64,000 nucleotides of DNA. Source: Candidatus Omnitrophota bacterium (lineage in GTDB: Bacteria > Omnitrophota > Gorgyraeia > Duberdicusellales > Duberdicusellaceae). The notes beneath the pieces are model-generated. The model was not told the origin of the DNA. It searched no databases and saw only the letters and a list, made by a program, of their open reading frames with translations. The translations under genes and the position numbers were made by a program. Shown piece after piece: positions 26,750-51,295 of the stretch (positions are counted from its first letter, which is position 1; every line of letters begins with the position of its first letter). The DNA lies in contig JAGGSQ010000042.1 in NCBI GenBank assembly GCA_021159015.1, forward strand, positions 557 through 64,556, read 5' to 3'.

Positions 26750-27772
<1,023 letters not shown>

Positions 27773-29031: not shown

Positions 29032-29577
29032 TTAAGTTCGAAAAAAACTCAGTATTTCCTCTATTGCTTTTATCTGTCTTTCTATCTCGGGACTCAGTGG
29101 CCCAGATTTTAACAAAGAAGAAAGAGCTGTAAACTCCTTCTGCAGAAACAATATCTTGTCTTTCAAGATAGTATTCATATCTACTAATGCCTGAGAAAGA
29201 TTCTTAAGTTGGTCATTACTACGCGTGTTAAAATTGAGGTTCAACTCCCCTTCTTTAAGACGATCTATCTCTTTTTTAAGCCGATACAAAGGCCCGGATA
29301 TCTTGTGGGAAATCAATAAAGTCAGGATAATCACGGCGAGAGAAGCAAAAACACTTACCCAAAGAATAATCTGAATCACTACCGGTAAGATAAAATCTGA
29401 AGTACTCTTGACGTAGACATGAGTATTTTCTATAGCTACAGTAGTAGAATTTCGCAGAAAGAAAAGAAGCAGAACAGCAATAAAAGCAGAGGAAAGAACA
29501 ACGATATATGCAAATTTAATAATAAATTTTGTCTGAAAACTTTTGTCAATAAAGTAGTGGCGTCTTTTATTATCCAT
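29032..29577 (-). CDS. membrane protein with two TM helices and a HAMP domain
   Basis: 181 aa: TM1, a ~25-aa loop, TM2, then HAMP (ISHKISGPLYRLKKEIDRLKEGELNLNF...LSQALVDMN). It has no output domain. Confidence 0.5.
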   Translation of the reverse strand: MDNKRRHYFIDKSFQTKFIIKFAYIVVLSSAFIAVLLLFFLRNSTTVAIENTHVYVKSTSDFILPVVIQIILWVSVFASLAVIILTLLISHKISGPLYRLKKEIDRLKEGELNLNFNTRSNDQLKNLSQALVDMNTILKDKILFLQKEFTALSSLLKSGPLSPEIERQIKAIEEILSFFRT

Positions 29578-30233: not shown

Positions 30234-31121
30234 TTACACTATCTCACTATGCAGCCAGCGGTAAACCGTCACTCTGTCCACGCCCAACTTCTTTGATATT
30301 TCCAAAATAGAATATCCTCTGGCTAACAACTGCTCTACCAAATAAACCAAAGCTTTTCTGTTTTGAGGAAGACGGGGAAGCTTTCTCCCTTTAATTCTCT
30401 GCATCTTTTTCTCTATTTCCCAAAGATTACTAAATAATTTACTCGACCCCAAAAACATCTTCTTATTTCTTCTCGCCCATTTAATTACTTCTTCATAGAG
30501 CTTTTTTATTGACTTCTTCCCTTCCATTGTTCTGATACTAAAAGATATTTTGCTCATATCTTTGACAAACTTTCTATAGGCAGCCTTAGCTTTTTTGGTG
30601 CTAGAAGGATATACCTCTTCTAAAATTGGCAAAGGGTTAACAAATGAGCTCTTTACATTCTTGACGTATATATCCAAAGAATGCCAATGATATTGAAAAG
30701 GAGAAGTAACTATTCTGGCCCGGTAAGCATTAAGATGTATATACAAAGAGATGGTAAGAAAATAATCTGCATCGTTGCATAGCGCTGCTCTATATCTTCC
30801 CGAAAAAACATGTCCTTTTCTTTCGTATTTGCTGTTAAAGTATAAAGCGTATCTTTTGAATAATTCCTGCATTGCTTTTGACAAGAGATTGTTTCCTGTG
30901 CGAAGCAAGATATGTAAATGATTGGTAAGCAGAGAGAAAGCATATACCTCCAATGAGAACTTAGCAGAAGACTCTTTAAGAAGAGAAATAAACTTAAGAT
31001 AGTCTGACTCCTCCAAGAATACTTTCTCTTTTCCGGGAGCCCGCTGAGTAATATGATATACTCCCCCCTCTATTATAATTTTATTCTGCACTCTTAATAT
31101 CCTCTTCTTGCCTCTATCCAT
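30234..31121 (-). CDS. IS200/IS605-like Y1 (HUH) transposase, RAYT-like, with C-terminal helix-turn-helix extension
   Basis: 295 aa. The N-terminal ~140 aa carry the Y1_Tnp hallmarks (YHITQR, the HUH motif HLHILL and GHVFSGRYRA with the catalytic Tyr region). The C-terminus carries an HTH (ISKKLGVDRVTVYRWL). Identical hairpins flank the gene. Confidence 0.75.
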   Translation of the reverse strand: MDRGKKRILRVQNKIIIEGGVYHITQRAPGKEKVFLEESDYLKFISLLKESSAKFSLEVYAFSLLTNHLHILLRTGNNLLSKAMQELFKRYALYFNSKYERKGHVFSGRYRAALCNDADYFLTISLYIHLNAYRARIVTSPFQYHWHSLDIYVKNVKSSFVNPLPILEEVYPSSTKKAKAAYRKFVKDMSKISFSIRTMEGKKSIKKLYEEVIKWARRNKKMFLGSSKLFSNLWEIEKKMQRIKGRKLPRLPQNRKALVYLVEQLLARGYSILEISKKLGVDRVTVYRWLHSEIV

Positions 31122-31266: not shown

Positions 31267-34200
31267 TTACGACGGTGCGGGAAAAGGAGGTAAAGATTGT
31301 TGATAAAATGCAGTTTTACGCTTTCTCTTCTCTTTCTTCTTTTGGTCTTCGTAGTACTGGTAGAATTTGTTCTTGTCTTTGAGTTTGAGGCTGTTTTCAA
31401 TAAATTCATAAGCTCCCACATCTAAGCGTATGTCGTCAAAAGCAGAAGTATCAGTGGGAGTTAAGGGATGATAAGCATAAAATAAAGGTGTGGCCGGTTC
31501 AAAGGAAGCGAAGCGATAACCGCTAAGAGATTCGAAATAATCTTCCTTAACCTTTGCTGCTTCTTGCTGGTAACGGGGATTGTTGTAAAACTTATGGCGG
31601 TATTGGGCAATGAAAGGTTTATGCCTGCTTACTACCAACTGTGCGAGCCGCTGGTAATCAGCATTACTCTTAGGAGACCAGATTTGCTTGGTGTTAAAAT
31701 AGACAAAGCCCGGAGGATTTAAGGGCTGGGGGAAGCGAGTAGGTATAAGTATAGGGGTATTTAAAGGCGTAATTGTTCCCACTAAATTGCCATAAATTTC
31801 TCTAGTGGGATAGGTAATGGAGAGGTTAGAGATATCTAAATACAGGTCTCCTTTAATAGAGACATTTAAGGGTGTCCCCACAGGGCTAATCTTTCCATTT
31901 GGCGCATTTAAAAAAGAATCCTTTACTGCTGCCACATGCGGACCCGCATTTTCGGCAAGGATCGAACCATTTTCTGCTGTCAGGCGGACACCTGATTTTC
32001 TGGACTGGACTGTTCCGGTAATGGTTATATCCCCAGCAGGAGTTAAGAGATTTATAAAGCCGTCAGAGATAATGCGGTTTATAACAATCGGACCATGAAC
32101 TGTCAGGCCTATTCTGCCACCAGCAGAGATATTATTGAAAGTAACACCATCCATCTCCTCAAGGTATAAATCGTTCCCTGCTACCGCATTAATCGTATTT
32201 GCCCATATGTCAATATCGCCGTTAAAAACGGACATATCTCCTATATTATCCTCAGCCTTTAAATCTACCAAATCACCGCGAATATAGTTGGTATCAGCGG
32301 GGTCAACAAACAAATCGTCACAGATACTGCCCGAGGCGGCATTCAGGTAAACATCACTATCCCCCTTAGCCTGGATATCTCCGACAAAAAGGTCTGAATG
32401 TGTTGTAATATGAATGTCTCCTCCCTCATTGTCCACATGTTTGGCATATAAACCTCCGGTATTGTCTATCACAATGTTCCCCATCCGGGAATTGTCAGCA
32501 ACAAGCATATTTGACCTCGTATCAAGGTCTATACCTTTTTGTGCGTCAATATGAAGTTCATCAGCTGCCACATCGCGGGCAGGAACACCATCCTGCGTAA
32601 TAGAGCCCTGTTTTGCCGTCAGGAAAACATCATTTTTTGTGCCGGCATCTATCCATATTGCCTTAATTCCTGAAACAATGCTAGTTAAACTGATATCATT
32701 GGCATCATTATCCGTGAAAGATGTCTCAACATCTGTGGCGGTTATTTTTCCAAGCGCACTTATGGTTACCGAACCATTGGAAGCTATAACTTTGGAAAGG
32801 TCAATATCATCCCTATCGTAAAACGTTATATTCCCCGCCTTTTTGGAGCGGGCAGTCAAACTGTTTACATCATTATTAAAGTGAAGCATTGTTATATTTC
32901 CGGCCGCAGTCGCAAAAAGGCCTGAAGAATTGACAAAGGCATTGCTTTGTATTATGTCTCCCTTGCCGCTTCCGTCATAATCAGCATTTATATATATGTC
33001 GCCTGCTGTAATAATATTGCCGGAGACCTGTTTAAAGTCACTGCCTGAGTTTAATGTAATAATCCTACCTGCACCACTACTGGTAATATTTGCATAAACT
33101 GAAAGAATATCGTCGTCTCCTCCATCTTCTGCCGCCAACAACGTTATATTTCCACCCGAAGAAACAGGGCTCAATACATTAAGAGGAGAAGCCGCAGATA
33201 TATTAAGCTTTCCCCTGGTATTCACTGCTGAAAATCCATCATTATTAAGATCTAAAAGGTTCAATGTTCCGGTATTGGCAATACCAACGGCATTATCAGT
33301 ATTTACTACGTCAAGGTTCACCACAGTTGTTTCTATAGCATCATTTTCTCCAATACCCGACTCAGCCCTGAGTTTCAAATCTTTCGCCGTAATATTATTG
33401 GAATTGCCATTTGCATCAGTAATTGCCCCATATGCCCTTATATCGGCATTTGTTCCGCAAGATACTGAATCTACTGCTATTTTCCCCAATGCCGTAAGCT
33501 TCAGCGCCTGACCTACAGACACATTGCCTAAAGTGACATTATCCTTTTCACCAATAAAGGCACTGCCAGATACATTAGAAAGGTTTAATGTATCTACACC
33601 TATATCCAGCCAATTCAACTCTCCGGCAGAACCAACATTGTTTGCCTTCATAATGTTCAATGTGCCTGCCGTAAGATATTTACCATCGTTTGAGGTATCG
33701 ATTATGTCCCCATCCGCATTAAGTGTAACAGCATGAGAACCGGCATTAACTGAGCCGTTTAGTCTGATATCATCAGAGGACCTAAGAGACACATCTCCCG
33801 AAGCTGTTATAGTGTAATTACTGAAAAGATTTAAATTGCCACTGGTAGTAGAAATATTTATGCTTCTTGCAGATATATCTTTTAAACTCAATGCCCCACC
33901 AGAAGAAACCTCACTTATATAAATATCGCCGGCACCATTATTAACTGCAACATAAGAAATTCTGGTATCTAAAGCATCGTTGCCTGCCGCCCCAACATTG
34001 CCTGCATTATTCATTATTAATCCATCCGCCCAAATATAACTTGTGTTATCTGTATCCAAAATATCCGCTCCTGCCGGATTAAGTCGAACAAGCTTGCCCT
34101 TCGCATTGAGATTGGCTCCAAAAACCATATTTCCTTTAGAAAAGAAATCAACGTCATCGCCTGCAGACGTATCTCCTATAATAGAGAGGCTGCCCATACT

Positions 34201-37200
34201 GTATATTCGCAACCCTTGTGCTATATCTGAAACACCAACATTCAAATCTTTATTAGAGAAAAGATTGGCGCTTCCCGCATTAGTATGCATATTTAAAACT
34301 CCATTGGCATCAGTGAGTTCTACATCCAAAGCACCGGCATTGCCTAACGGATTTCCAATAGAGTTAAAGGCATTAAGTTCTATATTGTCCGCATAGATAT
34401 TTGTAGTGGAGTCGTCCAGCCAATCAAAAATGGAGCCGGTATCTGCTTTTATCCATGCCTTCTGCCCGCTATTTATCACATCTAAATAAATATCTCCAAG
34501 TGGTTTCTCCAGATAAATATCGCCGGAAGCCCTGGCTGTAACATAAGGCTTGTCCCCGCTCAGTGCAATTCTAACGGGTGAACGCACCGTCCCTATCTGC
34601 CCATTTGAGGCCTCCAAGATAATACCATTAGAAGCAACCATATTTGAGAAAGCGTCGGGTCTAGGATTAAAGATTCTCCCGCCTACCTTCACTCTAACCC
34701 TGTCTCCAGCATTCAGGGCATAAACATTTATGTCATGTTCGGACCCGAGGAAGATATGCCCGGTTGCAGTAAGGAAGACATTTTCTGAGGCATGCACATC
34801 CAAGTCCTCCCTGCGGTGAATAACAAGCTGGTTTGCGCCCCATTCCAAATCGTCGCGTTCGGCTGAAGCAATGGCAAGCTTTATTTCATCTATCTCAGCA
34901 TCAGTATAATTCTTAGAAAAGACAAAGATTAAATCGTCTTTATCTTTGCCTATTTCCCCGCCGGCAACCACAGTAACATTTCGCCCGACTATATTGGGGT
35001 CTTCTATGGATAATGTAGTATCTTTTGTTAAAACAAAACTTGGCAGCCCGCCTTCCAGCTGTTTCTGGGTCCAGAAGTAACCACTGCTTAAATCATCTTT
35101 CTCTTTGTCTGAAAGGGAATACGAGAAATCGGGGTCAAAATCCGTCTGCCCCCACGTCCGATACTTATCCGTCATATCATTTTCTAAATCCTTAATGTCT
35201 TTATCACTCCAGCCGGATTTTTTCAGGCTGTCTCTCTCGCTCTGAGAATAATGAAATTCAACATTCGGGTCATATGCGTCCCAGGAATATGTGCCGTCGG
35301 AATTTCTCTTCAAGTTGCGTTCCTTACTCCAATAGCTTTTATATGCCTCGTTCATAGTATTACTGTAGGCATCCCATTGCGACTGCTTTTTATTTTCAGC
35401 ACCGGCGCCGGTAAGCTGCATATCATTCCACAAAGCAAGCAACTCACTTTTTGTACGGGTATCGGCCTTTTCATTTGAGTTGGCATCTATAATATCGCCA
35501 GGGGCAAATATATTCACGTCACCGGAAGCAGAAACCTTATGTATGGCAAGGTCTCCGGAAACCTCCATAAGGTTTATATCCCCTTTAGCGGATATTACGT
35601 CTATTACTCCTCCATTTGCCGCATCGGTATCAACGCGCAAGACATCCAATGGAGCACCAATAGTGCCGGTTTTAGCCTCTAAGTAGATATTTTTCCCTTT
35701 TATAATAGAAATGCTATTCGAAAGAAGCAGATTATCGTTTGCTATCAACCCCACAGAACCACTCCCCGTAACAAGATTGGTAACGAATAAATCGCCGTTG
35801 GGAGATTCAATATATATGTTCTTGCCGGCAAGAGCATTGAGAGTATTGCCTCCTGAATGGGTTATCTTAAAATACATATCTTTTTTGCCAATACTGCCAT
35901 TATTGGCCATTAGATTTATTTCGCCGCTTTTTACGCTTGAAAAACTGGATTTTGAAAGTATACTGCCGGCAGATGAGGTCAAATTTGTGACTCCCCCTAC
36001 ATTATTGAGGTTGCCTCCCAACCGGATATCACCGACACTATTTACAGAAACCTGGCCGCGGTCATATCCAATAAAGGACACATCTATTGGCAGATCGGCC
36101 TTGACGGAATGATAGTTGTATGTATTAGTCCCTTTATCCCAGATTTGAGTACGTCTCCACCAGGTCTTCTTTGCCGGATATGGGGGATGCCACCAGCTTC
36201 CCGGATGCCAATACCAGTAGGTCCCTTCAGAATCGTCCTGGTGAATCAGGTCGTTTTTAGTCGTAACCGTCAACCTCTTATAGGTATAGTCTGCCGCATG
36301 CTTTTGGCCTACAAAATCTCCCTGAGGAAGTTCGTCCCCCGATAAAATTCTCGTCTTAGGATACCCGCTTACATAATCACTGCTTGAAAAATGCCTTTCG
36401 CTCACCGGGATGAACCCTAAGAATTTGTCATGTTCTTTATACCATTTTTTTATGGTCTGGGACGAAGTCGCCTTGCCCGTCATCCAGAAATAGCGCATAT
36501 TCTCAAGTGGCTGATAAATTGCATCTCTGCCAGTCGCTATAGATTTTAACTGCGTGGCAACCGTACTGTTTACGCCGCTATTGGTAAAAATGCGGATTTG
36601 GTTGCCAAGACGTTCATATCTGGTTACAAACGAAAGCCCTGTCCCGTTGTCCTTTGCCTTGTCGATTAAAATCACCTGGCCTTCAGCGCCTCCTGTATCC
36701 ACATCTTTAAGAACAACGGGGAGGCTTGTCTGATTATCAATATTTATCCTCCCATACCCGTCCAAAACGTTAATCTTACCATCTCCGGTACTGACAATTC
36801 TGCCGGAAATAAATACCAAACCGCCTCTTACCTGCGCACCCAAAATCCGTATTTCGTTATCCCGGGCATCCAATTCAGCGGATATTCCGCCAACTACCAC
36901 CCTGCGGCTTGGGTCAAGGCTTTCATCAACCTTCAATATCTGCACAAAACGTTTGCCGGTTCTATTCGCCTCATTATAGGCCGCCTCAACATCGGCCTGA
37001 GTAATAACAATAGCTTTATCCGGCAGGCCGCTCTGTATGACACCATTTATATTTACTGTATCGGCATTTATGTAAATATTGTTCCCAGCTATCTGAAAAC
37101 TATTTGAAGGAGATTGGCCTTTATACGCAGGCTTAACCGGCCAATTATTTTCATAGGCCTCGGCAAGATACTTAAACCCCGCCGCGGGATTCGGGCCAAT

Positions 37201-43200: not shown

Positions 43201-46200
43201 TACAGGTGTGCGAGTCTGGTTGTATGAAGTAACAGAATCCACCATCTGGTTCCATTTATCTACCGCCCCGCCTACAAAGGCAATATCAGAATTTCCATCA
43301 ATTTCACCTGTGTAAACATCCATATCATCGCCATTGCCCCTTGCATTTACCACGGCATCATCGGCAATGCGCGCATAAGTATGTTTAACCAACGTATTTA
43401 TTGAAACGGAGCCGCCTACTGCGGCCGTTCCAGCAATATTTCCATTGCCTGAAAGCGAATTTATCAGCGAATCATCTTCGGAAAAAATTCTTATATTGCC
43501 GTCAGAGTCCACTACCGCCCCTTCGTCTATTAAAGACTCAGTGCTATTAACGATAGTATTTGTACTTATGACCCCTCCTACAGCGGCAACTCCAGCTCCC
43601 TGAAGAGATACGGCTCCTGAATTAATATCATCGGCAACATTTGTAACGATATCTATCTGCTTTTTAGCACTTACTCTTGCACTTTTGCCAATAGAAGCCT
43701 TGGTATCTTTAACAACAGTATTCACAACAGCTGTCGCACCTATTCCTGCTGTCGCTGCCGCCCCGCCTGTACCGCCCAAAGCCGTAAGAACAGTCTTGCT
43801 GTCCGCCTCAACAGTAACGGATTGATCGTTCCCTTTATAGGCATTATCCTGATTAACTTCAGCCCCACTGTCTATATAAGCGTAAGTGCCTGTATTTATA
43901 ACGTTTAAAAGCAGTGACCCAGCGACCGCTGCCGTACCTGCCCCGCCAAGGCTAACTGTTGCGTCAATAATACGTTCCGAAGATTCGGCATTTACACTTA
44001 CTAGTTTTTTTGCGTCAATCCTGGCATTATCACCAATAAAAGCGCGCGTGGTGTTATTAGAAAGCATAAACGCCCCTGCTCCGCCTACCGCCGCAGTACC
44101 AGCTCCCATAGCGCTCCCAGCACTCATATTAACAGTAAGCGCATCCTTAGCAAGCACATTTACCTCACCTTTTGATTTCACCTCAGCTCCATCGCCTATA
44201 TACGCAGCGGTATCAGTAAGGGGTTCATTAGAAGTCTGGTTCATATCTCCAGAAACGGATATCGAACTTTTATCTTCTATAAAATCTTCAATGCTGGTGG
44301 TATTTCCATTGCTATCGGTAAATTCTATATCCCCAATACTGCCAAACTGACCACTAATGCCAGCCTCTCCTTTTTGATCAACATAATCCCCAGTGGAAAC
44401 ATCATTGCCTTCGGTATCTTTTCCTGTAAGATGGTTTTGTACATCATCTTCAAACTTTGCTCCCACAGAAACAACAGAGACAGCACCTGCCACCGCGGCT
44501 GTGCCTGCTCCTGTTCCAGCAATTGAAAGAGAATCTATTACCTTCTCGGAATCTGACCTTACAAGGACACCATCCGCATCTGTAAGACCATCCTCGCTGT
44601 AAACCTTAGCATCCGCATCTATGTTTGCTATTACGCGGTTTTTCACCACCGTTAAATCCAAAGATCCCCCGACACCGGCTGTGCCTCCGGCGGCAGCCGC
44701 ACCTGATATACCAAGAACTTTCACTTTGTCAGATGAAGATACCTCAATGCTTTGCCCGCTAACGGCAAAAGCGCTGTTCTGATTAAGCTCAGAATTGCGC
44801 CCTATACGGGCATGGGTATCCACATCCATAATTCTAAGTACCAAAGAACCCGCCACGCCAGCTGTCCCAGCACCAGTCCCTCCCACCGCAAAAGAATCAA
44901 TATTTTCTTCTGAATTAGCAGCTACACTTGTTTTATGCCTGGCATTGCTTTCAGTAAAATCTCCTAACTCCGCCGTAATGTCATTTTCAAGTAATACCGC
45001 TGTAAGAGACCCCCCGACTCCAGTGGTGCCGCCTCCGCCAATAATGCCAGAAAATTGGAAAATCCTGCTTTCGTCGCTGGCACTAATTCTGATATCATTG
45101 CCTGCTTCCAAAATAACACGGTCATCTTTATTGTCTGTCGAAACAGTAAAGGCGTGCGTATCGCTCTTTATTAAGGCAAAACTTACTGTCCCGCTTACGC
45201 CTGCTGTCCCTGCTCCGGAAAGACCCGCCATCATGGAACTAATTCTTTCCAGAGAATCAGCTCTAATTCCGATATCCTTTCTTGCCTTAACCTTTGACCT
45301 TTCATCTACCCATGCGCTTGTATTCTTGAATATAGCACTAGTATCAGCCGACCCTCCCACACCAGCTGTTCCGCCGCCTGTAACAACTCCGCCATATCCG
45401 TTTACTCCAGTGTAATCAAAGGCATTTATCTCTACTGACTGATCCGCACCGGCATCAGAAGTGTCATTAATAACTGCATCTTTGCCTATATAGGCTGAAG
45501 TATTATTTACAACAATATTGACTGAAAGCGTGCCTGCAACTCCGGCAGTGCCGCCGCCTGATCCTCCGACGACAACATTGCGAAGATCTTCGGTTGCAAA
45601 AGCATTAATGTTAAGCCCCTTAAACTGTTTTGTCTTTTTGGTAGCATCTGTCAATTCGCCAATTCCAAAACTGAAATTGTTCCCGTCAGGAAGCGTAACC
45701 GTCAAATCAAGCGTGGGCACATCTATATCTCCGTCATACACATCAGAAGAATCTCTTTTGGCTTTAGCTACAACATAAGCCCCATCTGCAATAAACGCTT
45801 TAGTGTTGTTAACAATAGTATTTGCCGCAACGGACCCTCCTACTCCGGCAGTACCGCCGCCTGCACCGCTTCCCACAAACAGGTTTGAATCAGTATCGTC
45901 CTGGGCTAAAAGCAGTATATTTCCATCCGATTCCACATCAGAATAACTATCTATAAAGGAAAGTGTATTGTTAACCACCACCAAGGCCGAGGCCGCACCT
46001 GCAATACCAGCGGTACCACCGCCGGCAGCTCCCGCCGTAATAGAAAAAACATTTTCTTTAGACGTAGAGCTTATATCAATATGTTTTTTCGCGATAACCT
46101 GAGCATTTTTCCCTATATAGGAGTTTGTATGTTTTACCAACACATCCACATCACCTGAAGCACCGACACCGGCAGTGCCGCCGCCTGATGCAGATCCTCC

Positions 46201-49200
46201 AATCCCTAATATTCCAGTATCATTTTTTGCGCGTAAAACAACCGATTGTGCGCCGTCAGCATCTGCATTACCAACCACATTTATCTTTGCATTATCTCCA
46301 ATATATGCTTCAGCAGTCGATACAACTGTCTTTTCATTAACAGCACCGGCAACTCCCGCTTTCCCCCCACCTGAACCAGCGGCAGAGAAAATTTTTAAAT
46401 CATCGTCAGCGCGGGCATCAAGCTGAATGCCCTCCACATTGTGCAATTCAATAGTAATCGGATCACTTCCCTTTGCCTTCGCTGTTACATCCGCCAATTC
46501 ATCAATGTAGGCTTTTATATTCTTTACTATATTAGCATTAAACGCAGAACCACCCACTCCGGCTGTGCCGCCGCCTGCAGCCGCACCTGCAACTCCGATT
46601 ATATCTGTATCGTCATCCGCATCAGCAAGGAGGTTTTTCTCGGTGCGAACCTTTGCCCTCTTTCCAATAAAAGAAGAAACATTGTTTGTTATCGTATAGC
46701 TTTCTCCTGCTCCTGTTAAACCTATCTTTCCCGCACCGCCAAAAGCGGCTGAAACAGGAATGATATTGTCGTCAGAAGACGATATCAAGGAAATGTTGCC
46801 TTGCGCTGTTATATCGGTATCGTCTCCCAAATAGGCAAGAATATCATTGTCCACTATGCCAAAATCTACAGCTCCGCCAATACCAACCTTCCCTGCTCCC
46901 ATAATTGCGACTGCTGCAGAAATGATTCTGTTGTAATTGTCTGCATTAACAAAAATGTTGTCTGCGGAACTAACTTTAGTGGATTTCGCCAAAGCTGCGA
47001 GGGTATCGTTTGAAATCCAATTCGTATTTGCCGCACCAGCCAAGGCGACTTTCTGCGAGCCACTTCCTCCTCCCGATATGGAAACGAGGGAATTCCCGGA
47101 ATCAGCATATATGTCTACATCCTTAGAAACTGTCAAATCAACCGCTTCAGCAAAAGCCTTAGTTGTTTTTGTAATATGGTTATGAGAAAAAACTCCCCCT
47201 AAACCAACTGTCTTTGCACCTGCTGCAGCAGCAGCAACTGAAAGCATCGTGGAAAGATTCTTTGCATTTATAATCACATCATTGCCGGCTGTAACATCTA
47301 CTCCATCAGATATATATGCCTGAACATCATCTGTAGCAAAATTTAAACCTGCATCGCCGGAGACTCCAAGCCCAAATTTAGAGCTGCTTTTTTCATTATC
47401 ATTGTTTTCTCCTGTTGCCTGGCCGCCGCTGGAATTGCCGCCTTTTATCTTAGCCCATATACTCTTAAAAAGGTTGCCCAGTTTATTCTTTATTCCAAAC
47501 TGTGCACCCGCAGCTCCAGCCAGAGAAAAACTGTAGCTATCATCCTTTGAAGAGGCATTCAGTATTAAATCATGACCGGCGTTAATCTCTCCTTTACTCA
47601 ATGACGAATCTTCCACATTACCTATAAATGCTTTGGCAACATTATCTATATCATTCCATGAAACACCGGCACCTATTCCAACGGTATCGCTTTTTGCCAC
47701 TCCTGCAACCACGTTAATGACAGAAACCTCGTTCTTAGCTTCAATATCCACATCATGTGACGCAGAGAGATCGGCGGTATCCTCCACATAAGCAAGCGCC
47801 GTATTCTCCAAATCAAGAGTATTAAAGGCTCCTGTGATGGTAAATTTATCAGAGTTCCCTCCGGCTTCGGCGACACTCAATTTTCTGTGGTGCGCTTCGG
47901 CATTTACCTTGATATCGTTTTTATCAGAAGTTTCGGAGGGATTCTTTTTCGCGTTTACTGCGGCGCCGTCTTTAATAGACGCTTTAGCGGTATTTCTGAA
48001 AACCCCTCCTACATATGAGCCTCCAACAGAACCTTCGCCGGTTGTCCCAAAACCTAAAGAAAAAATAGAAAAAAGCCCCGCGATATCAATCTCATCAATG
48101 GAACTATAGGCATTTACCAGGACACTCTGCTCAGGGCCATAAAATGCACTATCGGTATTTACCTTAGCCCCTTCATCTATATAAGCGTTAGAGATATTAT
48201 CGAGGTTTACAAAGGTTACCGCGCCAGCAATGCCAAGTTTGTCTCCACTTCCGCTGCACTGCGTATAAGTAGTGGATATCCTATTGGCAACACCAAAATT
48301 CAGGTTCAGGTAATCACTTAAAGTATTTAATGTCGTCCCTACTGCTTCAGAGATCGTTCCCACTCCAAAATCCCACACATTTTCAATAAACTCTCCCGTT
48401 GTATCGCCACTGTTGAATGTAGGCCAGTCATAGTCAAAACTCCATCCCTCAATCCACGTCATCTGGCTGGGAACAATCGATTCAGAAGAGACTGTAAGAG
48501 ATTTAGAGGCGTCGACTTTCGCATTCTTTCCTATATAAGCATCCGCTTCATTGTTATAGTCGCCGAAAGCAACCGCTCCTCCCACAGCAATAGTCCCGTC
48601 ACCGGCCGAACCAGACGCACTTATCTGATAATTGTCCTCGGCCCTTGAAGAGACATCAATATCTCCGGAGGCATCAACATCCGCACCGTCGGCTATATGA
48701 GAATCGGCTTTATTCTGGCTTTTTACAAAAGTTACTGCGGCAGCAAGGTCCAATTTTGCATTACTCTTTTCTTTGAGTTTTTTCTTCTTTATTTTCTCAT
48801 ATGTCTTGTTGGCAAGCGTCCCAACAACAGCCTTATTTTGCACGGGGTTGGTTGCCATGGCGGAAGTAGTAGCCTTATTTTTTACATTTATGGAATTCGC
48901 ATTGACAACAATATTATTAACTGATGAGACAGTGCCATTTAATGAAGCAGTGGCACTAGAATCCATATCACTAAATACCACAGAGGCGGCTGCACCAAAC
49001 TTGGAAGATTCCATATCAAATGTGCCCGAACTTACAAGAAAATTATTGTTATTTGACGCTATCACATTCACATCTTTTGCTTTTACAGAAACATTATCTT
49101 CAACAATTGCCCTGGAATTAGAAATTCCTTTCCCGTAAGTAAAACTGATATCCACACCTTTGCTCGAGGCAGAGCCCGCATAAGTCTTAAGTTTAAGCGT

Positions 49201-51072
49201 ATTGCTGGTGGCAGCCGCAACGGAAACAGAATTACCGGCATTTATCTTAGCTCCGCTATTTACCAGTGACTCGGCAACCGCCTCTGAACGGCCATATGCC
49301 ACACCCAAATACAAACCAATTGTAGTCATCTCCGCATTGGAATATGCCTGACTACCAATTATTATATCGTTATCGGCACTAAGAGTTGCCCCATCTCCTA
49401 TCTCTACCTTCGATTTAGCAGAAGATAAAACCGCCGCACCAAAAGCAGAAAACTCCAAGATAGCACTCTCATCTATATCATAACCAAGTTCACCCGGCAG
49501 GGATGAAACATCTTCACCAAGCTCCACCAACTTCGCCGTAGATGCCGTAGACGTAAGAGATATATTATTCGCTTTAATAAATGAAGAATCGCCTATATTA
49601 ATGCTGGCCTCGCTTGCTTTGAGTTTAAATCCCGGGGTTGCCGCCCATATCAAATCAACAATGTCCTTAGCAGAAAGAACCACATCCCCCCCAGAATAAC
49701 CGTTGTCAGCAAACGCAAGAAGATATACCCCATTTCCTATATTAATAGTAGGCGCGGAAAACTTGATATCGCCTGAATCCCCCTTTGAGGGCATAGATAA
49801 ATGGGCATTTTTTGTATCTCCGCCGGTAATATCCCTACTAGAAATAACGATATTATCAGAAACATTTATTGATTCGTCAGCCTGATAAATAATATCTGCA
49901 CCATAAGAGTATATATCGCCTGTAATATTTACCACATCCGGGTCAATCACAAAATTACCATTCATACCTGTATTGGAAGAAAGGTCGACCTTCAGACCAT
50001 CGATACCTACTCTCCCTTCAGCGCTTATATCAAGATTTCCTCCCTTGCCGTTAATTCTGCCGCCTTTTGCAGAAATTCGCACATTTCCGAAAATAGATGT
50101 ATCTCCAGCTGAAAAAACCCTGATATTCCCGCCGGAAAACTCTAATCCCCCATCGGCCTTAATAAAAGCATCCTTAGTTAAAACTGTATCTTGGCAGGAA
50201 TCAATAGACACTTTCCCGGCTTTCCCATCGCCGCTGGAACTCACATCAATAAGGCCCGAATTAACAGCAATACCGGCACTACCTACAAGTTTTATCACAC
50301 CATCTTCTTCTACAATCCGGGCTGCCTCAACTATGCCTTTCTTGTTTACTACCTCCTCTATCAGAGAGAATGCCTCCTCTTTGGGAATAGTAACTGTACC
50401 CGGCTTTCGGTCCATCCTGGGAATAACAAAATTTATCAGGCCCTGCTCATCAAAGCTCATACCGAAAGCAGTGGCACCGGCAATTACTACCTCTCCTGCC
50501 TGGGCAATAATTTCTCCTTCATTGGAAACCAAGGGAGAGACTAAAACCACAAAGCCGTTATTATCTACTTTGATACTTCCCCTGTTGACAACATAGGAAG
50601 GAACAAAACCTTGTTTCAGATTAAAGTTATATCTTCCGGCAAGAAAATCATCATTGGATATATCCAGGGTAGAAGCAACCAGCCCAGCAGCATCAACCCG
50701 CGCTGTTCTTCCAAAAAGAATTCCATTGGGATTGACCAAGAAAAGCCTGCCGTTGGCAGTTAATGTTCCAGATATGTTTGAGGGATCAGCCCCCACAACT
50801 CTGTTTAAGGCAACTGATGAAGAAGAAGGCTGGTGAAAATGGACGGCCTCCGGTCGGGCAATGCTGAAGGAATTATAATCAACAATGAGTTTAGCAGAGG
50901 AAGTATTGACATTCAAAGTATTAGTCTGGGACCTGTCAAAATTCGCAGATCCGGCTACTACTTCTTCTCCTTCAGGGAGACTATAGGAAGTAAACGGGTA
51001 AGCTAAAAGAATGAAGCTGAAAACAAAGATAAAGAAATTGTCCTTCTCTTTTCGATTGGGCTTCGTTTCCAT
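31267..51072 (-). CDS. giant two-partner-secretion exoprotein (TpsA / filamentous-haemagglutinin-like adhesin), 6,601-6,608 aa
   Basis: A single uninterrupted 19.8 kb ORF. The N-terminus is a signal peptide plus a TPS (haemagglutination activity) domain with the conserved motif LFLVNPNGILFG. A tpsB gene lies immediately upstream. The body is beta-helix-like repeats. The start is ATG at 51072 (the ORF track uses GTG at 51093). Confidence 0.85.
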   Translation of the reverse strand: METKPNRKEKDNFFIFVFSFILLAYPFTSYSLPEGEEVVAGSANFDRSQTNTLNVNTSSAKLIVDYNSFSIARPEAVHFHQPSSSSVALNRVVGADPSNISGTLTANGRLFLVNPNGILFGRTARVDAAGLVASTLDISNDDFLAGRYNFNLKQGFVPSYVVNRGSIKVDNNGFVVLVSPLVSNEGEIIAQAGEVVIAGATAFGMSFDEQGLINFVIPRMDRKPGTVTIPKEEAFSLIEEVVNKKGIVEAARIVEEDGVIKLVGSAGIAVNSGLIDVSSSGDGKAGKVSIDSCQDTVLTKDAFIKADGGLEFSGGNIRVFSAGDTSIFGNVRISAKGGRINGKGGNLDISAEGRVGIDGLKVDLSSNTGMNGNFVIDPDVVNITGDIYSYGADIIYQADESINVSDNIVISSRDITGGDTKNAHLSMPSKGDSGDIKFSAPTINIGNGVYLLAFADNGYSGGDVVLSAKDIVDLIWAATPGFKLKASEASINIGDSSFIKANNISLTSTASTAKLVELGEDVSSLPGELGYDIDESAILEFSAFGAAVLSSAKSKVEIGDGATLSADNDIIIGSQAYSNAEMTTIGLYLGVAYGRSEAVAESLVNSGAKINAGNSVSVAAATSNTLKLKTYAGSASSKGVDISFTYGKGISNSRAIVEDNVSVKAKDVNVIASNNNNFLVSSGTFDMESSKFGAAASVVFSDMDSSATASLNGTVSSVNNIVVNANSINVKNKATTSAMATNPVQNKAVVGTLANKTYEKIKKKKLKEKSNAKLDLAAAVTFVKSQNKADSHIADGADVDASGDIDVSSRAEDNYQISASGSAGDGTIAVGGAVAFGDYNNEADAYIGKNAKVDASKSLTVSSESIVPSQMTWIEGWSFDYDWPTFNSGDTTGEFIENVWDFGVGTISEAVGTTLNTLSDYLNLNFGVANRISTTYTQCSGSGDKLGIAGAVTFVNLDNISNAYIDEGAKVNTDSAFYGPEQSVLVNAYSSIDEIDIAGLFSIFSLGFGTTGEGSVGGSYVGGVFRNTAKASIKDGAAVNAKKNPSETSDKNDIKVNAEAHHRKLSVAEAGGNSDKFTITGAFNTLDLENTALAYVEDTADLSASHDVDIEAKNEVSVINVVAGVAKSDTVGIGAGVSWNDIDNVAKAFIGNVEDSSLSKGEINAGHDLILNASSKDDSYSFSLAGAAGAQFGIKNKLGNLFKSIWAKIKGGNSSGGQATGENNDNEKSSSKFGLGVSGDAGLNFATDDVQAYISDGVDVTAGNDVIINAKNLSTMLSVAAAAAGAKTVGLGGVFSHNHITKTTKAFAEAVDLTVSKDVDIYADSGNSLVSISGGGSGSQKVALAGAANTNWISNDTLAALAKSTKVSSADNIFVNADNYNRIISAAVAIMGAGKVGIGGAVDFGIVDNDILAYLGDDTDITAQGNISLISSSDDNIIPVSAAFGGAGKIGLTGAGESYTITNNVSSFIGKRAKVRTEKNLLADADDDTDIIGVAGAAAGGGTAGVGGSAFNANIVKNIKAYIDELADVTAKAKGSDPITIELHNVEGIQLDARADDDLKIFSAAGSGGGKAGVAGAVNEKTVVSTAEAYIGDNAKINVVGNADADGAQSVVLRAKNDTGILGIGGSASGGGTAGVGASGDVDVLVKHTNSYIGKNAQVIAKKHIDISSTSKENVFSITAGAAGGGTAGIAGAASALVVVNNTLSFIDSYSDVESDGNILLLAQDDTDSNLFVGSGAGGGTAGVGGSVAANTIVNNTKAFIADGAYVVAKAKRDSSDVYDGDIDVPTLDLTVTLPDGNNFSFGIGELTDATKKTKQFKGLNINAFATEDLRNVVVGGSGGGTAGVAGTLSVNIVVNNTSAYIGKDAVINDTSDAGADQSVEINAFDYTGVNGYGGVVTGGGTAGVGGSADTSAIFKNTSAWVDERSKVKARKDIGIRADSLERISSMMAGLSGAGTAGVSGTVSFALIKSDTHAFTVSTDNKDDRVILEAGNDIRISASDESRIFQFSGIIGGGGTTGVGGSLTAVLLENDITAELGDFTESNARHKTSVAANSEENIDSFAVGGTGAGTAGVAGSLVLRIMDVDTHARIGRNSELNQNSAFAVSGQSIEVSSSDKVKVLGISGAAAAGGTAGVGGSLDLTVVKNRVIANIDADAKVYSEDGLTDADGVLVRSDSEKVIDSLSIAGTGAGTAAVAGAVSVVSVGAKFEDDVQNHLTGKDTEGNDVSTGDYVDQKGEAGISGQFGSIGDIEFTDSNGNTTSIEDFIEDKSSISVSGDMNQTSNEPLTDTAAYIGDGAEVKSKGEVNVLAKDALTVNMSAGSAMGAGTAAVGGAGAFMLSNNTTRAFIGDNARIDAKKLVSVNAESSERIIDATVSLGGAGTAAVAGSLLLNVINTGTYAYIDSGAEVNQDNAYKGNDQSVTVEADSKTVLTALGGTGGAAATAGIGATAVVNTVVKDTKASIGKSARVSAKKQIDIVTNVADDINSGAVSLQGAGVAAVGGVISTNTIVNSTESLIDEGAVVDSDGNIRIFSEDDSLINSLSGNGNIAGTAAVGGSVSINTLVKHTYARIADDAVVNARGNGDDMDVYTGEIDGNSDIAFVGGAVDKWNQMVDSVTSYNQTRTPVTEDGKKTRKMKGVSLTASSTEDIFSVTTGVGGAIVAGVTGSGAINTITTTTEASIGNDVKLNENNNGASSSQEVYLNSLDHSRVLSLTGVVAGAVKVGVGGGIATNIITKNVRSFIGGSDEARRADQKNIVKSKGNVSISAVSSDQVNNIIMNLSVGGIAGVGGAIAANVIANQVHSYIADKGKVDTDGDLLVKSKDDSYIDVTVGNGAFGIGGGVGGAVSVNVIANSTRSSIGDDALTNASGITDVFSDAVEDIEPIVIAGGAAGLVGVSGSINVDIIKSTTQSKIGDRAEINQDNSFYKSGQYVKVRSNDSAHISSKVGGGGVAAGIGAGGAADVNILRNSATAHIGNASKVKAYEDILVDAHTDKLVDSYTGSVGAGIMSGLSGSISISAVGGGLNYDARDSLGGSANGESGDSIEYADSVLDFNPIEEEENGFESDGKTHWSKGYKSTENVSQEFGDKNNAVKPSSDVDADGSQHPLSSTQAFIGSGAVVEAGRNLIVRASDTSHTRINAGGLSVAFQGGLSGAFAANILSNSTEAYIEDGAKTKAAEQTLVEADEDEQADTISISGGAAVFMGSARSNGITVIDSKTKAHINKNAVVNASCTDGNTVNVRAVSDSNINSVIGGGAGGLLEGVGSSYNACVVAKTTEAYFGEGSSVNALKGIKIDADSSEEIDDSSICFGVAAGAGQGIVAAVYSLNNNTIACIKDGASVDTDGSFMVNAKDDTALKSIAGSAGVSGVLGVGGSLNVNVITSNTRSYIADNVTVRAKGLYDSMDVYTGELADDGDPLTPITDDVKKTSARHGVFVTAFATEDILSDTTGLSVGTGNVSGAVGVEIIKTDTNAYIGNNVSINANEHSVSSQEVYVLAADHTRLVSSANTLSGGLVTSVGGSVDTGIFAKDTRAHIGNGSVVKSGGDITVQALSREDTEVATAALAGSLVGGMAGSVSVRCLSNSTDVYVGSDAHLDSGNNIRLFSSDRSTVDAKTGSASVGLGVAGFGGAVSVVTINNFTESHADSNTNLKSAKDVDINADSSETIDSVTVAGAGGGLTGVAGSVSVNVVTSKTHVYTKDGVNIDAGSDSSVKAEDTVNVSSKTGGGALSIGLGVGAGVDVDVIRTDTGAYLGTNNTVTADNLEIRAVSEKSVNSKVISASGGLACGITGAVSIVLAGADLSGDSRDESGNTASYSQEQASANKVDGYVDDVQGTDVKSDINNVSVESELNKSSSGSMSRTFAYMGDGSSADIENNLSITSSDSTDIDSYAGGFALGLLGIGGAFSSAKANIETTAGIGEEVDIDAGKISVYAEGKSDAYAESFAKTAGALSGVAAKAETVNVSTTEGYIGSGGNGKKIESDEFDVKADQETKFNSKTDSSAVSVVGKSGAWSSNKANALTTVDIGSNTQIKSDSVKIGASTTVWKPWLSDYNAISGSGGVFNGAAASGKTDVSVHTKVNIGNNAKIQMHDDADTTSDIEVSALNDLYLYDKVKLDAAGFISLAKSESFITAQPVDASINIGDGAFLKSLGDVKFFARTNADMKAQANTSTYGLASAGQGESKALADSDDTLIFGNNSEVIASKQMYLMAGADTDTVSLFSVKANTDVFNKTAFAYSGTPTADATARHNAGINIKSGSRIASGSHMYINAAKGLLFANGNGKASDASRYALEKLIELFGTDADGAFDTLGGHSVNEGKGSIILEGKLETGIYRDLFLTFGTNMFNPYYKKDDGTKGRYTIGYDAENGFWAVYNGENRLRILVPDQQSEGISWTVLTDQRIVDNIQQEIDRLENLKNQYGANSELAQDINTRINILKAQLNSQGNDEYVDIIKVNPAYAASGDVNIWGDYLVGTGEIIAPGDVKIRIINNSPLPIKLDSLTIPDDLGGKIKFNNHVVRDSSGISALNDGAPVGTVVNFTLQDAQDSLPPLIEVKNNFDKNSGVYNPDNIPDLSDPALFISGPINNINGMVSISNDTGSIIATSSIRADTIQLSAGGDFIFDSPETLYNIGPNPAAGFKYLAEAYENNWPVKPAYKGQSPSNSFQIAGNNIYINADTVNINGVIQSGLPDKAIVITQADVEAAYNEANRTGKRFVQILKVDESLDPSRRVVVGGISAELDARDNEIRILGAQVRGGLVFISGRIVSTGDGKINVLDGYGRINIDNQTSLPVVLKDVDTGGAEGQVILIDKAKDNGTGLSFVTRYERLGNQIRIFTNSGVNSTVATQLKSIATGRDAIYQPLENMRYFWMTGKATSSQTIKKWYKEHDKFLGFIPVSERHFSSSDYVSGYPKTRILSGDELPQGDFVGQKHAADYTYKRLTVTTKNDLIHQDDSEGTYWYWHPGSWWHPPYPAKKTWWRRTQIWDKGTNTYNYHSVKADLPIDVSFIGYDRGQVSVNSVGDIRLGGNLNNVGGVTNLTSSAGSILSKSSFSSVKSGEINLMANNGSIGKKDMYFKITHSGGNTLNALAGKNIYIESPNGDLFVTNLVTGSGSVGLIANDNLLLSNSISIIKGKNIYLEAKTGTIGAPLDVLRVDTDAANGGVIDVISAKGDINLMEVSGDLAIHKVSASGDVNIFAPGDIIDANSNEKADTRTKSELLALWNDMQLTGAGAENKKQSQWDAYSNTMNEAYKSYWSKERNLKRNSDGTYSWDAYDPNVEFHYSQSERDSLKKSGWSDKDIKDLENDMTDKYRTWGQTDFDPDFSYSLSDKEKDDLSSGYFWTQKQLEGGLPSFVLTKDTTLSIEDPNIVGRNVTVVAGGEIGKDKDDLIFVFSKNYTDAEIDEIKLAIASAERDDLEWGANQLVIHRREDLDVHASENVFLTATGHIFLGSEHDINVYALNAGDRVRVKVGGRIFNPRPDAFSNMVASNGIILEASNGQIGTVRSPVRIALSGDKPYVTARASGDIYLEKPLGDIYLDVINSGQKAWIKADTGSIFDWLDDSTTNIYADNIELNAFNSIGNPLGNAGALDVELTDANGVLNMHTNAGSANLFSNKDLNVGVSDIAQGLRIYSMGSLSIIGDTSAGDDVDFFSKGNMVFGANLNAKGKLVRLNPAGADILDTDNTSYIWADGLIMNNAGNVGAAGNDALDTRISYVAVNNGAGDIYISEVSSGGALSLKDISARSINISTTSGNLNLFSNYTITASGDVSLRSSDDIRLNGSVNAGSHAVTLNADGDIIDTSNDGKYLTAGTLNIMKANNVGSAGELNWLDIGVDTLNLSNVSGSAFIGEKDNVTLGNVSVGQALKLTALGKIAVDSVSCGTNADIRAYGAITDANGNSNNITAKDLKLRAESGIGENDAIETTVVNLDVVNTDNAVGIANTGTLNLLDLNNDGFSAVNTRGKLNISAASPLNVLSPVSSGGNITLLAAEDGGDDDILSVYANITSSGAGRIITLNSGSDFKQVSGNIITAGDIYINADYDGSGKGDIIQSNAFVNSSGLFATAAGNITMLHFNNDVNSLTARSKKAGNITFYDRDDIDLSKVIASNGSVTISALGKITATDVETSFTDNDANDISLTSIVSGIKAIWIDAGTKNDVFLTAKQGSITQDGVPARDVAADELHIDAQKGIDLDTRSNMLVADNSRMGNIVIDNTGGLYAKHVDNEGGDIHITTHSDLFVGDIQAKGDSDVYLNAASGSICDDLFVDPADTNYIRGDLVDLKAEDNIGDMSVFNGDIDIWANTINAVAGNDLYLEEMDGVTFNNISAGGRIGLTVHGPIVINRIISDGFINLLTPAGDITITGTVQSRKSGVRLTAENGSILAENAGPHVAAVKDSFLNAPNGKISPVGTPLNVSIKGDLYLDISNLSITYPTREIYGNLVGTITPLNTPILIPTRFPQPLNPPGFVYFNTKQIWSPKSNADYQRLAQLVVSRHKPFIAQYRHKFYNNPRYQQEAAKVKEDYFESLSGYRFASFEPATPLFYAYHPLTPTDTSAFDDIRLDVGAYEFIENSLKLKDKNKFYQYYEDQKKKEKRKRKTAFYQQSLPPFPAPS
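39300..49000 (-). repeat. intragenic tandem-repeat region of tpsA: about 70-80 degenerate 38-48-aa units with a Gly-rich core (GGGTAGVGGS / GAGTAAVAGS) followed by NxxxNxTxAYIGxxAxV
   Basis: The units run from about aa 700 to 3930 and are most regular between about 43.3 and 46.6 kb. The antisense frames therefore produce runs of PTPAVPAP-type spurious ORFs. Confidence 0.7.
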
Positions 51073-51161
51073 AAGCCAATAGACAAAACACACTATCCGT
51101 TACTTCGGCAGCTCGGCTATCCGTGGTATTAAACTTACCTTTAGATCCGCAGCTTTGCGTC

Positions 51162-51177
51162 CCCAGGTTGCCCTGGG
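51162..51177 (-). other. intercistronic RNA stem-loop between tpsB and tpsA (CCCAGG-GCAA-CCUGGG on the transcript, GNRA-type loop)
   Basis: Inverted repeat cccagg ttgc cctggg in the 200-nt tpsB-tpsA spacer. No U-tract follows it on the transcribed strand. Confidence 0.25.
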
Positions 51178-51295
51178 TTTGCCTTTTCGGAACTGATTTT
51201 CAACAATAATAGTATATTATATATGCCATCGATTTCCTATTTTGTCAAGGGAAGCCAGAAAATCTTTTTAAAGGTTTTTATTAAGTCTGCCTCAG

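Follow-up and report, generated by a model that had tools for sequence, protein, structure and literature searches.

A giant LktA-repeat TpsA protein, probably a filamentous adhesin, encoded beside a c-di-GMP-I-GGC riboswitch in Candidatus Omnitrophota

The tpsB-tpsA locus and its giant gene

We analyzed a stretch of 64,000 nucleotides from the metagenome-assembled genome of a Candidatus Omnitrophota bacterium (GenBank assembly GCA_021159015.1, contig JAGGSQ010000042.1, positions 557 to 64,556 of the forward strand; hereafter the window). Near its middle, on the reverse strand, lies a single open reading frame (ORF) of 6,608 codons that encodes a giant TpsA exoprotein of the two-partner secretion (TPS) pathway. 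The gene for a TpsB outer-membrane transporter adjoins it, and a riboswitch aptamer of the cyclic diguanosine monophosphate (c-di-GMP) class I, GGC variant, occupies the spacer between the two genes. We concluded that the giant ORF probably encodes a filamentous adhesin of the LktA-repeat family, exported by the type Vb route, with its synthesis tied to a cyclic dinucleotide by the riboswitch. The features that bear on this conclusion are listed below in window coordinates; residue (aa) numbers refer to the giant protein, and pN and pS are the proportions of nonsynonymous and synonymous differences between two strains.

51296..53086 (-): TpsB outer-membrane transporter, 596 aa, the upstream partner (ShlB PF03865 and POTRA_2 PF08479)
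51103..51192 (-): riboswitch aptamer of the c-di-GMP-I-GGC type, between tpsB and tpsA (Rfam RF03167, clan CL00126)
31267..51093 (-): giant TpsA ORF, 6,608 open codons counted from the GTG (a start at the ATG, 51072, gives 6,601 aa)
50974..51072 (-): Sec signal peptide region recognized by eye in the translation, METKPNRKEKDNFFIFVFSFILLAYPFTSYS/LPEG (basic n-region, then hydrophobic core)
50248..50934 (-): TPS secretion domain, aa 54-282 (PF05860, E 9.7e-32; TIGR01901, E 1.2e-24)
38767..48747 (-): LktA_tand_53 repeat stalk, aa 783-4109 (NF012206 and our own phasing with a hidden Markov model, HMM)
34204..37926 (-): family-wide conserved module, aa 4390-5630, a decorated beta-helix
31834..34203 (-): distal variable beta-helix, aa 5631-6420 (AlphaFold2 and homology; pN/pS 0.33)
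31270..31833 (-): C-terminal tail, aa 6421-6608 (conserved motif, Lys/Arg run, Pro-rich end)

A preliminary description of this DNA, made from its letters and a list of its reading frames, had pointed to an ORF of about 6,600 residues and had warned of repeat mis-assembly. Public gene calls place the start codon at the ATG at 51072, giving a protein of 6,601 aa in place of the 6,608 codons counted from the GTG, and the deposited record (MCD6134585.1) carries the database name ‘filamentous hemagglutinin N-terminal domain-containing protein’. Comparison with other assemblies bore out the ORF. Eight other JGI/ENA contigs encode the 6,601-aa protein at 99.985% identity with zero gaps, and a second strain encodes a 6,594-aa protein that is 94.2% identical across 6,571 aa, with 3 gap positions by BLASTP. 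Alignment of aa 1067-6601 between the two strains with MAFFT gave 11 gap positions and no frameshift; by codon, this region differed at 606 synonymous versus 383 nonsynonymous positions (pN/pS 0.195), and the ratio ranged from 0.12 to 0.33 along the giant gene. The ORF is intact and under purifying selection. An assembly artifact, or a non-coding pseudo-ORF born of collapsed or expanded repeats, is effectively excluded. Such an origin would suit a strongly repetitive gene, and one short-read Logan contig does end just short of it, but the identical length and sequence in the eight other contigs, the roughly 10 gap positions over >5,500 aa in the 94%-identical strain and the pN/pS value all speak against it. 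Moreover, the repeat units are mutually just ~30% identical as protein, too diverged for assembly collapse.

Divergence between the two strains was not even along the gene. In the comparison with L011 (contig CAZQVU010000002.1, gene copy 96% identical), the 3′ end (31270-32850, the last ~530 aa) had pS values of 0.35-0.60 and pN values up to 0.18; elsewhere pS was mostly 0.03-0.28. This pattern suggests a mosaic gene whose 3′ end has undergone recombination or quicker turnover. The metagenome-assembled genome that holds L011 is labeled ‘uncultured Planctomycetia bacterium’, and further members of the cluster carry Deltaproteobacteria or archaea labels. These odd labels are probably binning or taxonomy errors on Omnitrophota-like contigs.

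The identification as a TpsA exoprotein, and the textbook TPS domain with an NPNG motif claimed for the N-terminal ~300 residues, stood up to profile searches. Besides the PF05860 match, TIGR01901 scored 86 bits against a cut-off of 29, and a pattern search located NPNG at aa 121; apart from TIGR01901, no N-terminal adhesin model matched when the first 400 aa were compared with NCBIfam. The neighboring gene product matched ShlB (PF03865, 102.9 bits, E 3e-29) and POTRA_2 (PF08479, 80.9 bits, E 6e-23) and is named by NCBI as a ShlB/FhaC/HecB family protein. The locus therefore holds a TPS domain with NPNG, an adjacent TpsB with POTRA domains and a passenger predicted to be an extended right-handed beta-helix, as expected of a type Vb pair. 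When the protein was submitted to Pfam as two 3,300-aa halves, zero matches were returned, even for the TPS domain; pieces of 400-1,100 aa recovered that domain, and the empty result is explained as a scoring artifact of very long, compositionally biased queries. An outer-membrane TpsB also fits the host. The window contains the lipid A/Kdo genes LpxK, KdtA and a lipid A acyltransferase fused to an ELM1-like domain, so the envelope is diderm and contains lipopolysaccharide. Genes for V/A-type ATPase subunits, together with lipid A/Kdo genes, occupy window positions 582-10723 and 11968-16059 (-).

The riboswitch aptamer matched RF03167 over model positions 1-80 of 80 with E 8.7e-15; its 70.9 bits exceed the gathering threshold (59). 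It lies on the same strand as tpsA within a tpsB-tpsA spacer of 200 nt, and it ends 10 nt 5′ of the GTG and 31 nt 5′ of the tpsA ATG. In the second strain the aptamer is 100% identical, and the flanking spacer there has substitutions and an indel. Folding of the region gave no clear terminator or alternative structure sequestering the ribosome-binding site (z -1.5), and the sole terminator-like match was on the opposite strand. A sigma-70 promoter seen by eye in the spacer (TTGACA ... TATAAT) was set aside, as its spacing falls outside 16-18 nt and a scan did not support it. Riboswitches of the c-di-GMP-I class govern motility, biofilm and adhesin genes (PMC7266159); in C. difficile, two adhesins are under c-di-GMP riboswitches together with the metalloprotease responsible for their release (PMC11477304), and control of pili is known as well (PMC11477304; PMC7266159). 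The Omnitrophota genome has c-di-GMP turnover genes, given that the window holds a PAS-HD-GYP gene (encoding a PAS-HD_5 protein, 20060..21406, -) and a 159-aa ORF that ends in an HD-GYP-like segment.

Repeat stalk, conserved module and tail

The Gly-rich repeats that follow the N-terminal region belong to a described class, although the preliminary description had implied otherwise. The NCBIfam model NF012206 (LktA_tand_53, ‘tandem repeat-containing filamentous protein’) matched 40 stretches with E-values down to 6e-84; four consecutive segments, with 6, 12, 15 and 7 of the stretches, scored 131-276 bits against a cut-off of 50. Our own iterated HMM phased the stalk into ~48 units between aa 783 and aa 4109, with a modal period of 53-54 aa, interrupted by occasional 60-62-aa units and larger insertions. 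The repeat zone proposed earlier at aa 700-3930 was therefore real, and its limits had to be moved to about aa 783-4109. The supposed non-repetitive segment at aa 3930-4400 is non-repetitive only for about aa 4110-4390. The contention that these repeats are unlike the 19-residue repeats of filamentous hemagglutinin (FHA) was upheld: Pfam at E<=0.1 found no Fil_haemagg family in any scanned segment, aa 5101-6229 included.

A longer periodicity was superimposed on the units. Three super-repeats of ~815 aa (aa ~1500-2300, 2300-3120 and 3120-3900), each of ~15 units, aligned end to end by BLAST (E 1e-48 to 1e-76); they are ~31% identical, and the offsets between them are 808-820 aa. Because they align end to end, we attribute growth of the stalk to an ancient triplication of a ~15-unit block. 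Insertions such as D-x-DVYTGE-I/L-D recur at equivalent positions of the super-repeats.

Beyond the stalk, the region at aa 4390-5630 proved to be one module with many relatives. An early word-index search with aa 3900-5100 returned one partial Omnitrophota protein, as if the region were an orphan; that view was overturned by an exhaustive HMMER search of aa 4150-5349 against 1.84 billion cluster representatives (50% identity), in which at least 947 representatives passed E<=1e-3 and 323 passed E<=1e-30. When the 149 best matches were mapped back, conservation began sharply at ~aa 4390 and stopped at ~aa 5630. The relatives are nearly all 4,000-7,500 aa long and carry the module in their C-terminal third, typically at residues ~2,700-5,700; most full-length relatives have LktA_53 repeats upstream of it, and the part that follows it varies from about 250 to 2,500 aa. 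A TpsB gene adjoins the giant gene in 38 of the related loci that were fetched. With a 7-sequence alignment as query and one genome per species, module relatives were found in 336 species, mostly Proteobacteria. They include Thalassospira (44-45% identity), Methyloversatilis, Hydrogenophaga, Thauera, Pseudomonas, Stutzerimonas stutzeri, Pseudoxanthomonas and Marinobacter, as well as Desulfobacterota, Limnochordia, one cyanobacterium, Gemmatimonadaceae and other Omnitrophota. Where databases give these proteins a name, it is either ‘filamentous hemagglutinin N-terminal domain-containing protein’ or ‘leukotoxin LktA family filamentous adhesin’; the latter is used for module-sharing proteins of Halanaerobium (P0216) and of Cyanobacteriota (P0126). 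The module itself had no match among Pfam, NCBIfam or PDB sequences, profile search included. At aa ~5421-5520, a weak similarity to DUF2345 (VgrG C-terminal repeat) stayed under the cut-off, with E 0.007, and was judged to be generic beta-helix similarity.

An AlphaFold2 model of aa 4400-5599, built from a 26-sequence alignment, had a mean predicted local distance difference test (pLDDT) value of 80.3 and a predicted template modeling score of 0.64. It predicts beta-helix coils with three decorations and no enzyme-like fold:

37759..37884 (-): helical hairpin opening the module, aa 4404-4445 (model residues 5-23 and 28-46; pLDDT 52-73)
36100..36288 (-): long beta-hairpin arm, aa 4936-4998, with the aromatic tip PGSWWHPP (model residues 537-564 and 573-599; pLDDT 60-84)
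35044..35451 (-): helical-bundle insert, aa 5215-5350 (helices at model residues 816-949; conserved W/Y/D positions)

The arm is three-stranded in the model (aa 4866-4889, 4936-4963 and 4972-4998). The only weak similarities returned by Foldseek were to secretin pores with long hairpins, none of them significant (E>=0.24). These results recast several zones that had been set apart in the preliminary description. The coiled coil placed at aa 4400-4430 corresponds to a predicted helical hairpin at aa 4404-4445. The Trp-rich motif reported at aa 4950-4980 is present and sits at the tip of the predicted arm; its tip residues are identical in the two strains and not conserved across the family, and thus are lineage-specific. 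The second beta-helical class, given as aa 5050-6400, is real and yet not continuous, as the helical insert at aa 5215-5350 interrupts it. The coiled coil, the Trp region and the start of the second repeat class are parts of one module in at least 947 representatives, and so the multi-zone architecture cannot be called unusual for this family.

Past the module, an AlphaFold2 model of aa 6150-6608 continued the beta-helix to ~aa 6420, with pLDDT >85 for aa ~6180-6420 and ~28 aa per coil. This distal beta-helix is common only to close relatives and to repeat regions of other TpsA-like proteins. The last ~190 aa, modeled at pLDDT <50 and hence with no confident fold, had been described as unique. 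They are not: at least four other proteins end in the same motif, Y-x-Y-H-P-[LI] ... D-x-Y-x-F-I-[DE] followed by a Lys-rich run, always at the extreme C-terminus, namely P0213 (from another Omnitrophota), P0129, P0109 (a 5,835-aa protein with a TPS domain) and, in part, P0004 (a 1,901-aa TpsA that lacks the module). In the wider form (Y/F)-x-Y-H-P ... Y-x-F-I-(D/E), again with a Lys-rich run after it, the motif was also seen at the 3′ end of the giant gene of L021, another Omnitrophota locus. Between the two strains the tail is the most diverged part of the protein (pS 0.6).

Downstream genes and genomic setting

Five small genes lie 3′ of tpsA on the same strand:

30234..31121 (-): IS200-like Y1/REP-associated tyrosine transposase-like gene with a C-terminal helix-turn-helix (PF01797, E 1.9e-11; HTH_23)
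29570..30208 (-): accessory gene 1, an envelope protein resembling SurA-N/peptidyl-prolyl isomerase (PPIase) chaperones, 212 aa (SurA_N_3, E 5.8e-5)
29032..29577 (-): accessory gene 2, two transmembrane (TM) segments and a HAMP-like domain, 181 aa (TM2-HAMP matches)
28471..29031 (-): accessory gene 3, a signal-peptide protein of 186 aa with HExxH...QE-L-GYVEY (conserved motif and synteny)
27898..28377 (-): 159-aa ORF with TM segments, a HAMP-like region and an HD-GYP-like end (BLASTP)

Accessory genes 1 to 3 (window 28471-30208, -) occur in the same order directly 3′ of the giant gene in two other Omnitrophota genomes, L006 (9247-10946) and L021 (14823-16455), at 31-54% identity; the trio is absent from the proteobacterial loci. 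The product of gene 1, which also matched an EpsD-family PPIase model under its cut-off (E 4e-6), is 49% identical to its L006 counterpart and 31% to that of L021. Gene 2 matched solely the TM2-HAMP parts of sensor kinases (E 2e-7), with identities of 54% (L006) and 40% (L021). No family model matched gene 3, in which the motif HExxH...QE-L-GYVEY is invariant in all three Omnitrophota copies; we regard its product as a putative small zinc metallopeptidase. By analogy with other large adhesins, the trio may serve as a chaperone, processing and release set for the fiber.

The transposase-like gene, which scored 52 bits against NF047646 (under the cut-off), separates tpsA from the accessory genes in the window and is absent from that position in L006 and L021. 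We concluded that it was inserted between tpsA and the trio. At the edge of the cluster, the last 27 aa of the 159-aa ORF are 52% identical (BLASTP, E 9e-7) to the PAS-HD_5 protein encoded 7 kb away; this ORF is possibly the remnant of a truncated c-di-GMP phosphodiesterase, and its membership in the unit is uncertain. The whole cluster (27898-53086, ~25 kb, tpsB-tpsA plus the five small genes) stands between ilvB-ilvN (53105..55248) and ilvC-leuA (25247..27763). As ilvBN-ilvC-leuA are normally contiguous, this position suggests that the cluster is an insertion. The neighborhoods of the L006 and L021 loci differ from that of the window.

Adhesin, toxin or coat

The preliminary description had found no pretoxin, toxin, immunity or orphan C-terminal (CT) module and no CdiA or FhaB landmark beyond the TPS domain, and it leaned toward an adhesin or fiber over a toxin of contact-dependent inhibition (CDI). 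Our searches agreed on each point. A pattern search of the C-terminal half detected no VENN, ELYN or NEALV-type pretoxin motif; no PT-VENN, DUF637, pretoxin or toxin Pfam family matched any segment scanned, just as none of the Fil_haemagg families had. We found no orphan CT/immunity modules at the locus, and no small cognate immunity gene directly downstream, where the Y1 transposase-like gene is followed by the conserved envelope proteins. The tails of relatives carry Big_9, cadherin-like, C-type lectin and FG-GAP domains (in one member of alignment A5 and at the Alkalinema locus) and, in two Desulfobacterota, RTX calcium-binding repeats; 7/10 of the long tails had no Pfam match, and none of about 17 tails scanned held a toxin domain. 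Because relatives' tails bear adhesion or calcium-binding domains and none bears a toxin domain, this comparison favors adhesion. From the sequence and the models we infer actual secretion, filament length, adhesive function, the ligand and switching direction of the riboswitch, and the roles of the accessory proteins.

Several observations weigh against a riboswitch-controlled adhesin. The riboswitch was not found by Rfam at six other loci of the family, nor by pattern in 90 loci, most of which end before the 5′ end of the gene, so that its absence holds for just a few; on this showing the regulation is taken to be lineage-specific. No paper was found that settles which ligand the GGC variant binds within the c-di-GMP-I class. 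The window protein contains no recognizable lectin, immunoglobulin (Ig) or cadherin domain, its last ~190 aa, which lack a confident AlphaFold2 fold, could hide an effector, and the far greater divergence between strains of its C-terminal ~530 aa is a pattern also seen in polymorphic toxins. The only characterized protein with these repeats, LktA of Fusobacterium necrophorum, is described as a TPS-secreted leukotoxin. We know of no experiment on any module-bearing member.

The kinship with LktA underlies the alternative that the fiber delivers a membrane-damaging element, either the tip of the beta-hairpin or the C-terminal domain, to host or prey cells in the manner proposed for LktA or for ShlA-type TpsA hemolysins, which would serve a predatory or parasitic lifestyle. 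We consider it unlikely. The predicted long arm with its Trp-rich tip invites the idea, as does the proposal that Omnitrophota are host-dependent or predatory and bear large surface proteins (PMC10066038), but the Foldseek likeness to secretin pores was weak and not significant, and family members do not conserve the Trp-rich residues. Beyond generic beta-helix, moreover, no similarity to ShlA-type or pore-forming domains was seen, relatives' tails carry adhesion domains, and control of the c-di-GMP type suits attachment better than attack, without excluding the latter.

A CDI-like or polymorphic toxin, with an unrecognized C-terminal toxin and a downstream immunity gene, is in our judgment improbable. 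Its appeal is architectural: the stalk, module and distal beta-helix could be equated with the FHA-1, RBD/YP and FHA-2 regions of CdiA, in the same order of long beta-helix, non-repetitive center, second beta-helix and short distinct C-terminus. Tails do vary across the family, the C-terminal ~530 aa have the raised pS noted above (0.35-0.60 vs ~0.03-0.28 elsewhere), and small ORFs lie 3′ of the giant gene. The downstream genes, however, code for envelope proteins that bear signal peptides or TM segments (SurA-N-like, HAMP, HExxH) and are conserved at 31-54% identity among Omnitrophota, unlike cognate cytoplasmic immunity genes. The C-terminal domain, motif included, is conserved in distant proteins as well as in a TpsA without the module; it is not hypervariable. 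The missing VENN or other pretoxin motif, the lack of PT-VENN, DUF637 or toxin Pfam matches and the absence of orphan CT/immunity modules argue the same way. Just as little probability attaches, in our view, to a purely structural coat or fiber without a specific adhesive or toxic role, which might for example space, sheathe or shield a nano-sized cell in the way of a protective S-layer. Such a role would be consistent with a protein that is nearly all beta-helix and lacks a recognizable binding domain, and a coat-forming role has been suggested for giant proteins of Omnitrophota (PMC10066038); the TPS pathway and the lectin, cadherin or Ig tails of relatives nevertheless indicate binding, and riboswitch control suggests conditional, not constitutive, production.

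We therefore return to the adhesin as the favored reading, for which the following course may be proposed. Sec would export the chain, and its N-terminal TPS domain would engage the POTRA domains of the adjacent TpsB barrel; once threaded, the chain would fold outside into a very long right-handed beta-helix, with ~3,300 aa of 54-residue repeats as its stalk. A beta-helix rises 0.48 nm per coil. At ~27-28 aa per coil, the stalk would measure roughly 60-90 nm and the whole protein ~100 nm, a considerable part of the diameter of an ultra-small cell. Past the stalk would stand the conserved ~1,240-aa decorated beta-helix as a ‘head’ with its helical hairpin, aromatic-tipped beta-arm and helical bundle, followed by the distal beta-helix, which varies between lineages, and by a short C-terminal domain that is basic and Pro-rich. 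The riboswitch just 5′ of the start codon would gate synthesis and tie production to a cyclic-dinucleotide (sessile or attached) signal. In Omnitrophota, the three co-transcribed envelope proteins (SurA-N-like, 2TM-HAMP and secreted HExxH) probably aid transit, processing or release. Most likely the fiber would attach an ultra-small, probably host-dependent cell to surfaces or to partner cells.

A bolder version of this reading is possible, and we offer it only tentatively. Residues 4390-5630 would be an undescribed head, acting in receptor binding or secretion arrest, that defines a large, uncharacterized clade of giant TpsA adhesins in >300 species. In Omnitrophota the locus would form a self-contained cyclic-dinucleotide attachment device in which the riboswitch acts with SurA-N-like escort of the 700-kDa chain and with HAMP and HExxH proteins for processing or release, a type Vb analogue of LapA/LapD/LapG or CD2831/PPEP-1. 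If this were true, nano-sized cells would attach to and detach from their hosts with such a device.

Much of what the locus displays is already known: TPS adhesins, LktA-type repeats and c-di-GMP-controlled adhesins are established, the protein itself was deposited under a generic name, and no new principle is involved. What is new is descriptive, namely the limits and fold of the ~1,240-aa module, the super-repeat organization, the riboswitch and the Omnitrophota-specific accessory trio. Because neither Pfam, NCBIfam nor the PDB offers a counterpart of the module, nearly 1,000 giant proteins are annotated just by their N-terminal 300 aa, and defining it would improve the annotation of type Vb adhesins. 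Cultured bacteria that are open to experiment are among the carriers (Stutzerimonas stutzeri, Methyloversatilis, Thauera and Thalassospira). A riboswitch before a giant TpsA gene offers a testable link between a second messenger and attachment in an uncultured, probably host-dependent nanobacterial phylum, and the conserved chaperone/HAMP/HExxH trio suggests dedicated handling of the fiber.

Comparison with known systems

The closest likeness is to the LktA-repeat proteins, whose prototype is LktA of the F. necrophorum lktBAC operon: they share the ~53-aa Gly-rich tandem repeat and have a TPS partner gene alongside. LktA has 3,241 aa, and the window protein is twice that length. The window protein differs from that family in that its N-terminus is a classical NPNG-type TPS domain (TIGR01901), and neither riboswitch control nor the Omnitrophota accessory genes are reported for LktA.

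With FhaB/FHA of Bordetella the window protein has in common the TPS domain and TpsB, a long beta-helical shaft and, on the favored reading, the adhesin role. FhaB maturation depends on periplasmic chaperones and proteases, and the C-terminal part of CdiA and FhaB is kept in the periplasm until a trigger. By analogy, the Pro-rich, basic C-terminus of the window protein could stay periplasmic, and the SurA-N-like and HExxH genes may parallel that dependence. In contrast to FhaB, there are no Fil_haemagg or 19-residue FHA repeats and no sequence similarity outside the TPS domain. CdiA shares TPS export and the order of stalk, central region, second beta-helix and short C-terminal domain; it differs in its FHA-1/FHA-2 Pfam repeats, VENN/PT domain, recognizable toxin and immunity gene, of which no counterparts were detected at the window locus. 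Judged by sequence, membership in the CdiA or FhaB groups fails on every feature compared.

In Pseudomonas, LapA with LapD/LapG is a giant adhesin controlled by c-di-GMP that has a HAMP-containing inner-membrane partner. In C. difficile, the adhesins CD2831/CD3246 and the metalloprotease PPEP-1 are under c-di-GMP riboswitches (PMC11477304). Both systems have a very large surface adhesin, with production or retention linked to c-di-GMP, and a dedicated secreted or periplasmic protease. Our locus may be likened to them, having the riboswitch, HExxH and 2TM-HAMP genes in one cluster. We detected no homologs of LapD, LapG or PPEP-1 by sequence; the functional link is purely one of analogy, and export here would be by the type Vb route, whereas it is type I or sortase-dependent there.

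Lastly, giant ORFs have been reported from Omnitrophota (>20-85 kb genes; bioRxiv 10.1101/2023.11.21.568195; PMC10066038), so that our protein joins others of the same phylum that are very large, surface-associated and proposed to act in cell-cell contact. The Omnitrophota papers searched, among them the giant-gene reports (West-Roberts et al.; Seymour et al., PMC10066038), make no mention of hemagglutinins, two-partner secretion or filamentous proteins, and ShlB and LktA do not appear in those where they were looked for. In the published giants TM helices are numerous, and SecA-like, dockerin or discoidin domains occur, whereas the window protein is a classical TpsA.

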